NCBI GenBank assembly: GCA_000004695.1
Contig: CM000154.2
Coordinates: forward strand, 1,024,001 to 1,088,000
Reading direction: 5' to 3'
Source: Dictyostelium discoideum
Taxonomy: Eukaryota
DNA length: 64,000 nt
In this document: positions 57,097 through 58,226 of the stretch, piece after piece
Position numbering within the stretch: position 1 is the first letter of the stretch
How the letters are laid out: the number at the start of each line of letters is the position of its first letter
Notes under the pieces: model-generated
Databases searched by the model: none
Told to the model about the DNA's origin: nothing
Seen by the model: the letters and a program-made list of their open reading frames with translations, nothing else
Translations under genes and position numbers: made by a program

Positions 57097-58226
57097 ATGA
57101 AAGATAAAAAAAATAATACAGATACAAATAAATTAGAAATTGGTGATAATTATAACAACAATAATAATAAAGATAAAAATGGTTTAGAAATTAAAAGTGG
57201 TGATATTAAAAATAATAATAAAAATAATAATAATAGTTTAGTTGAATTAAAATTACCATTAGATATTTCATTGGCAAAGTTTAATTATAATATTATTTTA
57301 GGAGTTAAAGCAATTTATGTTAATAAAAATACGATTAAAGTATCACACTCAAAATATTTCAACATTAGTAAGTTGTTACCATTTTTTGGTTATAATATTA
57401 ATCATATTAAAGAAATTTTAAATCCAAATAAACATTTAGTGATTGAAACATACAAAGAATTGTTATATATTATTTATGAAACGTCAGTATCTGATTCTAT
57501 CAATAGTGCATATATATTTCGTGCTTTATTGAATCATGTTTGTGATAATAATATGAGAAGAGTTGGTTTTAATCATACAATGATTGATTTTGATGGTGGT
57601 GTAATTAGAAGACCAGATTTCTATTTTGTTTCAATGAAGTACTTCTAATCAAATTCCTCCTACGTAATCATCCATTTTATGCACCTCTTATGCCAGAGTT
57701 TGTTGCAGAATATAGATCACCAAATGAAAATTCAGTATCATTCAGAGACAAAATGATTGAATATATTCAAAATGGTATAGAATCATGTTTATTGATAGAT
57801 GATATTGATGAAGTTTTCATTCACTTTTGTGCAACACCCAACCCTGGAAATCCACCATTGATTCCTAATTCAACTCCAATTTTAGGTTTATATCATCAAC
57901 CAATCGGTGTAAACTCCATCTCCTATCATTGGAATAACTTTCAAATGAACCAAGGTTTCTTCCCACAAGTTATAATTCCATTACCTGGTATAATAATAAT
58001 AATAATAATAACAATAATAATAATAATAATAATAATAATAATAATAATAATAATAATAATAATAATAATAATAATAATAATAATAATAATAATAATAATA
58101 ATAATAATAATAATAATAATAATAATAAATATAATCATAATAATAATAATAAATATAATCATAATAATAATAATTATAATAATAATAATAATAAAAAAAA
58201 TAAAAAAAATTATAAACAATAAATAA
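57097..58226 (+). pseudogene. Uma2/DUF820-family (PD-(D/E)xK restriction-endonuclease-like, typically cyanobacterial/bacterial) gene with a 1-nt frameshift between the RRPD and PEFVAE motifs
   Basis: GVIRRPDFYFVS then (+1 shift) LIKFLLRNHPFYAPLMPEFVAEYRSPNENSVSFRDKMIEYIQNGIESCLLIDDIDEVFIHF matches the Pfam Uma2 consensus RRPDvsfv...aPDLvvEvlSPs...D...K...Y...Gv.EYWlvD....v.v. A poly-Asn insertion near the N-terminus and a poly-Ile tail are present. Confidence 0.5.
57990..58205. repeat. (ATA)n microsatellite
   Basis: Trinucleotide array about 215 bp long. Confidence 0.9.

Follow-up and report, generated by a model that had tools for sequence, protein, structure and literature searches.

Proteins of the Uma2/DUF820/TT1808 family (PF05685, COG4636; solved structures 1wdj, 3ot2, 6okh and 9y1l) have been described for Bacteria (Steczkiewicz et al. 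2012, PMC3424549), with PF05685 also noted in a few fungi by a survey of fungal proteomes (PMC4102429), and the family is referred to only as a 'putative' or 'predicted' endonuclease (PMC3424549; PMC4102429). Our literature search identified no Uma2 protein that has been characterised biochemically and no paper connecting Uma2 with Amoebozoa. For Dictyostelium, 16 candidate genes acquired from bacteria by horizontal gene transfer (HGT) were reported, including e.g. thyA/Thy1, iptA, ppk1, DUF885 and DUF1289 (Sucgang et al. 2011, Table 2, PMC3188802). Here we analysed a Uma2 locus at positions 57097-58226 of a 64,000-nucleotide (nt) stretch of Dictyostelium discoideum DNA (CM000154.2, positions 1,024,001-1,088,000; hereafter the window, to which all plain coordinates refer). 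The locus is very probably a unitary pseudogene, in the AX4-type lineage, of a Uma2 gene of ~320 amino acids (aa) from a eukaryotic clade characterised by a long C-terminal tail.

Base composition of the window ranges from ~13 to 35% GC, the extreme AT bias typical of Dictyostelium, and GC over the Uma2 locus (23%) equals that of the surrounding genome. The first half of the gene is contained in an open reading frame (ORF1, 57097..57648, + strand) annotated as DDB_G0288083, with a 183-aa translation 100% identical to EAL63386.1/XP_636896.1. It comprises an Asn-rich N-terminus, followed by the N-terminal part of the Uma2 fold with the LVIE glutamate and the RRPD motif, and ends in ...GGVIRRPDFYFVSMKYF at a premature TAA (57646-57648). 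The RRPDFYFVS block lies in frame 1, with its Asp codon at 57616-57618, and the PEFVAEYRSPNE...KMIEYIQNGIESCLLIDD block in frame 0, starting at 57693; both signature blocks are thus present in the order given by a preliminary description of this DNA. Frame 0, open from 57609, has the translation ...LRNHPFYAPLMPEFVAEYRSPNENSVSFRDKMIEYIQNGIESCLLIDD...PLPG, followed by ~75 ATA codons and a stop at 58224-58226. Between the two halves, three-frame translation and the P0191 and P0192 sequences revealed a short frame-2 remnant, (S)TSNQIP(P) (57640..57659, + strand). The frame-0 remnant LRNHPF...PLPG (57660..57989, + strand), recognised by its PF05685 score of 21.4 bits alone, by tblastn with relatives and by the invariant E/S/K columns, carries the second half of the Uma2 core, namely the EYRS motif (57708-57719; Glu 57708-57710) with its Ser, the Lys of RDKM (57750-57752) and LLIDD, as well as the clade-specific extension (FCATPNPGNPPLIPNS...). 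A microsatellite, (ATA/AAT)75 (57990..58215, + strand; detected with TRF), abuts ...PLPG and translates as poly-Ile down to the TAA at 58224-58226.

Neither Uma2/DUF820 nor DDB_G0288083 appears on the 16-gene list (PMC3188802, Table 2), which agrees with the preliminary description, according to which the family is not known from published HGT lists; the absence is probably explained by the lack of any Pfam match in the annotated half-protein. A literature search for DDB_G0288083 returned nothing.

Comparison of the conceptually repaired window protein with PF05685 yielded a match of 31.5 bits (E=1.5e-7) that crosses the junction and exceeds the gathering cutoff of 27 bits. ORF1 alone gave no Pfam match, and the C-terminal half alone stayed under the cutoff with its 21.4 bits. 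Intact orthologues scored 36.8 bits (D. discoideum assembly with locus-tag prefix ACTFIR), 39.8 bits (D. citrinum) and 50.6 bits (corrected D. purpureum model), and two divergent clade members, P0005 and P0006, fell below the cutoff at 22.2 and 17.2 bits, respectively. An AlphaFold2 model of the D. citrinum orthologue P0001, computed from a 44-sequence alignment, reached a predicted local distance difference test score (pLDDT) of 77.3 and a predicted template modelling (TM) score of 0.73; a model from a 4-sequence alignment (pLDDT 37.5) was discarded as unusable. A Foldseek search of the usable model against the PDB returned chains of 1wdj (TT1808), 6okh, 9y1l and 3ot2 as its seven best matches, with a probability of 1.0 and target-normalised TM-scores of 0.69-0.78 against these four solved Uma2/DUF820 structures, where the input alignment included bacterial Uma2 and the modelled protein is the orthologue P0001, not the broken gene of the window. 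Across the 44 sequences, no variation occurs at E220, S223 and K234 and hardly any at E131, D188 and D250 (D. citrinum numbering). The conceptual translation of the window retains all conserved columns (LVIE, RRPD, EYRS, RDKM and the counterpart of D250). These results confirm that the locus encodes a Uma2/DUF820 (PF05685) homologue, as had been proposed, and the intact protein is predicted to be a metal-dependent nuclease.

To describe the lesions, DNA of six alleles was aligned: the window, GCA_054883475.1 (locus-tag prefix ACTFIT), ACTFIW (GCA_054859355.1), ACTFIR (GCA_054859385.1), D. cf. discoideum (GCA_054859205.1) and D. citrinum. The alignment revealed four lesions private to the AX4-type allele, all given here on the + strand. 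An 18-nt in-frame deletion at 57281..57282, where the other alleles retain TAATAAATTCATTAAATA or a variant of it, takes NKFIKY out of the conserved 'F-x-K-F' N-terminal helix. A 1-nt insertion, G57639 (GAAGTAC, against GAATAC in every other allele), moves the frame from 1 to 2 and produces the premature stop, and a 5-nt deletion at 57659..57660, where the other alleles have CTGAA, CTAAA, CTCAA or CACAA, moves it from 2 to 0. The frame path across the break is therefore 1 to 2 to 0, and the 20 nt of frame 2 (STSNQIPP) still match NTSNQIPP of ACTFIR and ACTFIW. The single-base shift near 57640 reported earlier is wrong in detail, being the net effect of two indels, the inserted G57639 and the loss of 5 nt after 57659. 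Lastly, the 3' end is missing: the last 16 codons (VLNNYPLNLGNSQRYQ) and the stop codon are lost in the window, with the microsatellite in their place. In ACTFIR, ACTFIW and D. cf. discoideum the (AAT)n microsatellite starts directly past the stop codon, and the (ATA)75 tract is read as poly-Ile because the true 3' end of the gene is missing. The (ATA)n tail is a 3'-flanking, non-coding microsatellite that is read through, and not a host-type expansion of coding sequence, as had been assumed.

Within the D. discoideum complex, the gene is found in intact and in broken form. ACTFIR contains an uninterrupted gene of 323 aa at the syntenic position, between a DUF4286 gene and a 218-aa minus-strand gene; an intact ACTFIR gene at the syntenic locus of a disrupted window copy is the constellation of a unitary pseudogene. 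Two D. citrinum strains likewise have intact genes of 328 and 329 aa. In D. cf. discoideum (L003 3619-4546), the orthologue is annotated as two genes of 119 and 181 aa and carries its own 2-nt deletion (GAATTG--ATATATT) at about window position 57463; since this deletion differs from the lesions of the window, the gene has been lost more than once. In ACTFIW (L007 4001-5024), a full-length product requires the splicing of a 103-nt (AAT)n segment: an additional A in the (AAT)n tract of the 5' coding part (AATAATAAATAAT) leads to a frame-0 stop when read straight through, and the annotation bridges this stop with a 103-nt 'intron' of (AAT)n. The extra A is either a third independent lesion or an assembly error in the microsatellite, so that at least two, possibly three, independent inactivations occurred within the D. 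discoideum complex, the laboratory reference lineage included. Both ACTFIW and ACTFIR are labelled D. discoideum; we treated them as diverged lineages and not as near-identical strains because their identity to the window is ~95% in the gene core and 87-92% in the flanks. Pairwise Nei-Gojobori dN/dS values over 248 core codons ranged from 0.36 to 0.44. Between the window and D. cf. discoideum, 20 synonymous and 30 non-synonymous changes were counted, a synonymous excess over the neutral expectation (binomial p=0.001), from which we concluded that the gene was constrained for most of its history. Decay in the window lineage is visible solely as indels, which suggests a relatively recent inactivation without being strong evidence either way.

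To examine the distribution of the family, 1.84 billion representative proteins, EukProt-derived ones included, were searched exhaustively with a HMMER profile at E<=1e-3. Of the 66 matches obtained, most are ~200 aa long and combine a P(D/E)FV.E.RS motif with a ~70-aa tail; those of this size that carry a source name were labelled Uma2 family endonuclease or came from bacteria, e.g. Symploca cyanobacteria and a Deinococcota metagenome-assembled genome. Eight of the 66 differ in that their tail past the E-x-RS motif comprises 95-122 aa, compared to ~70 aa in the bacterial matches. One subgroup has the tail motif CATP..G..PLIP, the other YAT(T/A)ASG.LPA.G, and the C-terminal extension of ~65 aa (CATP..G..PLIP..GVN..W) is absent from the bacterial Uma2 matches. 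The long-tail sequences derive, within Dictyostelium, from D. purpureum (DICPUDRAFT_152247) and from a second D. citrinum paralogue (ACTFIU_010500, P0006), and otherwise from transcripts of Physarum polycephalum and Soliformovum irregulare, the EukProt entry P0005 and a metagenome contig of ~1 kb. No D. discoideum orthologue of ACTFIU_010500 was found in any protein search. By NCBI taxonomy, the named sources belong to Eumycetozoa (Dictyostelia, Myxogastria) and Variosea of the phylum Evosea, and no other named eukaryotic group or supergroup occurs among the 66 matches. A core-trimmed profile recovered five more environmental long-tail members, each on a contig of ~1 kb and scoring 90-140 bits, and separated long-tail members (90-163 bits) from bacterial proteins (<=72 bits). 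In a neighbour-joining (NJ) tree of 46 taxa and 194 columns, the eight eukaryotic sequences were monophyletic in 184 of 200 bootstraps (92%), and no bacterial sister group was resolved; the bacterial sample had been picked by query similarity. A phylogeny against bacterial Uma2, as proposed in the preliminary description, thus supports a eukaryotic clade. With 271-351 aa, intact relatives are longer than the ~190 aa typical of Uma2, and have a ~50-aa insertion in the N-terminal part. In the Soliformovum protein P0009, residues 50-67 match an N-terminal IQ calmodulin-binding motif (PF00612, 24.3 bits), a eukaryote-type addition that speaks against bacterial contamination for this sequence. Separately, two bacterial Uma2 proteins, P0010 and P0012, matched PDC-S03, a candidate defence family in PADLOC, at a weak 28-36 bits, which hints that some bacterial Uma2 proteins may sit in candidate anti-phage systems. 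The D. citrinum protein reached only 17.9 bits, and a PDC-S03 link for the amoebozoan gene was set aside as the matches are too weak to build on.

Inspection of the gene models revealed an intron shared by two clade members. In D. purpureum, the true exon junction is ...GGTTATGAAAG|GTAATTG...(77 nt)...TTTTAG|AAAACCAGAA, a phase 2 intron within the Arg codon before K-P-E, and in the D. citrinum paralogue it is ...GGTATAAG|GTAATAA...(370 nt)...AATTTAG|GAAACCAGAT, where the intron (L005 5617-5986) consists mostly of a long (AAT)n microsatellite. Both introns have canonical GT..AG borders and interrupt the same codon, the Arg before (K/R)P(D/E), in the same phase, and the D. discoideum/D. citrinum-type gene has no intron at that codon. 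In the simplest reading of these sequences, the intron would be older than the divergence of D. purpureum from D. discoideum, with a subsequent loss in one of the lineages; parallel gain at an identical site and phase is unlikely. The public model DICPUDRAFT_152247 (217 aa; GL871060.1, L004 5001-5917) is spliced incorrectly, so that 62 exon 1 codons (YNKNLNIEYY...LLPNGYE) are left out. Once the true intron (5399-5475) is applied, the D. purpureum protein comprises 279 aa, and its PF05685 score of 50.6 bits compares with a 'weak' precomputed match before. UniProt labels this protein as 'putative restriction endonuclease domain-containing protein', so automatic databases had already seen the family in D. 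purpureum.

Based on these results, we propose that the ancestral gene would have encoded a protein of ~320 aa with a restriction-endonuclease-like PD-(D/E)xK fold, and that the AX4-type lineage gathered the four indel lesions, so that translation from the ATG would halt at 57646. The resulting 183-aa product would retain the first Glu and the PD Asp and have lost the E-x-x-S...K half and the extension, without which it cannot form the fold; we infer that the AX4 remnant is without function. An artefact of assembly or sequencing, with a real gene that is intact, might be suspected in a very AT-rich, repeat-laden genome, in particular as the two assemblies of this allele give different lengths for homopolymers and microsatellites. 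Over 6.5 kb, such length differences are the only ones between the window and GCA_054883475.1, with zero substitutions, so that the two represent separate assemblies of essentially one genotype. However, GCA_054883475.1 carries all four lesions identically although it differs elsewhere in repeat lengths, neither the inserted G nor the 5-nt deletion sits in a homopolymer or microsatellite, and both existing annotations independently divide the locus between two genes, as DDB_G0288083 in AX4 and as ACTFIT_000420 (103 aa, with an artificial intron). An artefact is thus very improbable: the reading frame is truly disrupted, as the preliminary description had held, and the same lesions recur in an independent assembly with no splice or slippery site to rescue the frame. 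Enumeration of all GT..AG pairs gave 106 frame-opening splices, none of which spares the conserved core, and the candidate introns have a coding-like GC content of 23-37%. It is also quite unlikely that the remnant still works, be it as the 183-aa product, perhaps as a C-terminal product from M57690, or as a frameshifted near-full-length protein. Such a product would fit with ORF1 being open and annotated, with an omega of ~0.38 in the window lineage that is not above that of intact lineages, and with a frame 0 open from 57609, so that a single -1 slip within 57609-57646 would join the halves. No X XXY YYZ (-1) slippery heptamer is present, though; ORF1 lacks the invariant E/S/K half, the C-terminal part has no natural end and runs into ~75 Ile codons, the substitution counts are too few to show constraint, and four independent indels in one lineage together with separate disruptions in sister lineages fit a dispensable gene.

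Regarding the origin of the family, the preliminary description had taken the mere presence of a bacterial-type gene as pointing to horizontal acquisition. This argument does not hold for a member of a monophyletic eukaryotic clade in which a distinct extension and a shared intron occur. A recent transfer of a bacterial Uma2 gene into the D. discoideum lineage, followed by decay, would be in line with a family that is overwhelmingly bacterial, with most of the 66 profile matches being ~200 aa long and the named ones Uma2 or bacterial, and with the intronless D. discoideum/D. citrinum-type copy. We nevertheless regard it as hardly credible and ruled out by the spliceosomal intron common to D. 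purpureum and the D. citrinum paralogue, the host-like GC content of 23% and the clade distribution, with D. purpureum, Physarum and Soliformovum homologues in one clade of 92% bootstrap support; the clade-specific C-terminal extension and the gap between bacterial (<=72 bits) and eukaryotic (90-163 bits) scores point in the same direction. Vertical inheritance from an early eukaryote, with loss nearly everywhere and no horizontal transfer, would account for a monophyletic, intron-bearing clade that spans Eumycetozoa and Variosea of Evosea, and PF05685 was reported in a few fungal proteomes (PMC4102429). It is unlikely in view of the absence of any other eukaryotic supergroup among the 66 matches in 1.84 billion representatives, and of the abundance and diversity of the family in bacteria, as very many independent losses would be required. 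Since the exhaustive search gave no other named eukaryotic group, an ancient transfer is the most economical origin, and we infer that the clade began with one ancient bacterium-to-amoebozoan transfer; a bacterial origin that is old, before the split of Eumycetozoa and Variosea, is plausible. An extended interpretation would see in the long-tail clade an undescribed, ancient amoebozoan acquisition of a bacterial nuclease-fold gene, which by now is dispensable and turns over quickly in the manner of conflict, defence or selfish genes; for this, the unconserved position, the paralogues, an only moderate constraint (omega ~0.4) and the at least two (possibly three) independent inactivations could be cited. 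We consider this rather unlikely; if true, the alleles of natural isolates, intact or broken, would lend themselves directly to studying Uma2 function in any organism.

Several observations weigh against a functionless remnant of a conserved nuclease gene from this clade. Private changes of the window lineage amount to 6 synonymous and 9 non-synonymous ones (omega ~0.38, small counts), indistinguishable from the intact lineages (Fisher p=1.0, again with small counts and no relaxation detectable), so that neutral decay is backed by the indels and not by the substitutions. Residual constraint on ORF1 may be compatible with such small counts, and ORF1 remains an open frame of 183 aa with an annotated gene model. 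The second assembly, ACTFIT, may share its laboratory lineage with the window, and thus excludes an assembly error and is silent on wild isolates. Likewise, the NJ tree is built on 194 columns of highly diverged sequence with a query-similar bacterial sample. Finally, the PD Asp is replaced in three clade members, by Glu in D. purpureum, Asn in P0005 and Ala in Physarum; because this first catalytic Asp is replaced, nuclease activity may not be the trait that the clade conserves.

Compared with described Uma2/DUF820 proteins, the clade agrees in profile match, predicted fold and the E...PD...E-x-x-S...K signature, and its local motif P(D/E)FV.E.RS...K is nearly the same as in the nearest bacterial proteins. 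It differs in that the intact relatives are longer, with an Asn-rich N-terminus, the ~50-aa insertion and the ~65-aa extension, and are encoded in eukaryotic nuclear genomes, two of the genes with a spliceosomal intron, while the window copy is disrupted and not a functional member. With the 16-gene HGT set, the gene shares a domain that is otherwise bacterial and its presence both in species of the D. discoideum group and in D. purpureum; its occurrence in Physarum, in which it resembles thyA, implies an early amoebozoan origin. Unlike that set, the reference-strain copy is a pseudogene with no domain recognisable in the annotated product, the AX4 and D. purpureum copies are not 90-100% similar, and the D. 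purpureum model was mis-spliced. As in other unitary pseudogenes, a syntenic locus, an intact orthologue (ACTFIR), several lesions and independent disruptions in sister lineages are present; the replacement of the coding 3' end by a flanking trinucleotide microsatellite is notable here and typical of a repeat-prone genome.

The analysis extends the short list of social-amoeba gene families of bacterial derivation by a seventeenth-type candidate, and shows why domain screens of the reference proteome probably missed it, namely a split allele of which neither half is recognisable alone. It also corrects the annotation, in that DDB_G0288083 is a pseudogene fragment and not an orphan protein and the DICPUDRAFT_152247 model is revised, defines a eukaryotic Uma2 sub-clade with its own extension and intron, and points to close relatives as a natural source of alleles, intact as well as broken, for a family whose function is so far only predicted. 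Overall, the locus is a real yet ordinary feature, a modest curiosity that changes no major picture.

Gene order around the locus is kept within the D. discoideum complex. The upstream neighbour is a DUF4286 gene of ~132 aa with one intron (55984..56499, + strand), which served as a synteny anchor with ACTFIR, ACTFIW and D. cf. discoideum, and the downstream neighbour encodes a 210-aa polyQ/polyN protein (58632..59264, - strand), likewise a synteny anchor within the complex. The latter, in which polyQ and polyN form long tracts, gave no Pfam match and is conserved throughout the complex (218-252 aa). None of the genes next to the window locus recurs within ~4-7 kb of the D. citrinum or D. purpureum loci or beside the D. 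citrinum paralogue, and no neighbour of the D. citrinum locus was found in window positions 50000-64000. The D. purpureum gene lies next to MnmE/TrmE and a WD40 protein, and the D. citrinum paralogue next to a proteasome subunit, so the position of the gene is not conserved outside the D. discoideum complex. The intact D. citrinum gene (JBTAPK010000026.1, L002 7082-8987) is located ~2 kb upstream of a large polyketide synthase gene. The idea of a mobile element was rejected, as the flanking 'inverted repeats' are merely poly-T against poly-A low complexity; the locus lacks terminal repeats, the window contains no other copy, and Rfam gave no match in 55500-59500.

Three intergenic features near the locus were also recorded. 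Upstream of the pseudogene, a run of 49 T (56697-56745) is 12 nt longer than in GCA_054883475.1. Downstream, a GC-richer, coding-looking patch (58278-58445) contains a minus-strand ORF (MSNKFNEYTKLHNVFPEGPGHEPIVFEGGQFPQ...), with a plus-strand frame open too. The patch had no Pfam match, was absent from the searched D. cf. discoideum and D. citrinum sequences, and is present in ACTFIW and ACTFIR with ~87-88% nucleotide and 70-77% amino acid identity, no better than its flanks. The 103-aa model ACTFIT_000420 appears to be spliced across this patch, its last codons VPNI matching TGCCAAATATATAA just 3' of it. Between the pseudogene and the downstream minus-strand gene, a 56-nt unit is repeated 2.5 times in tandem (58445-58582, 83% matches).

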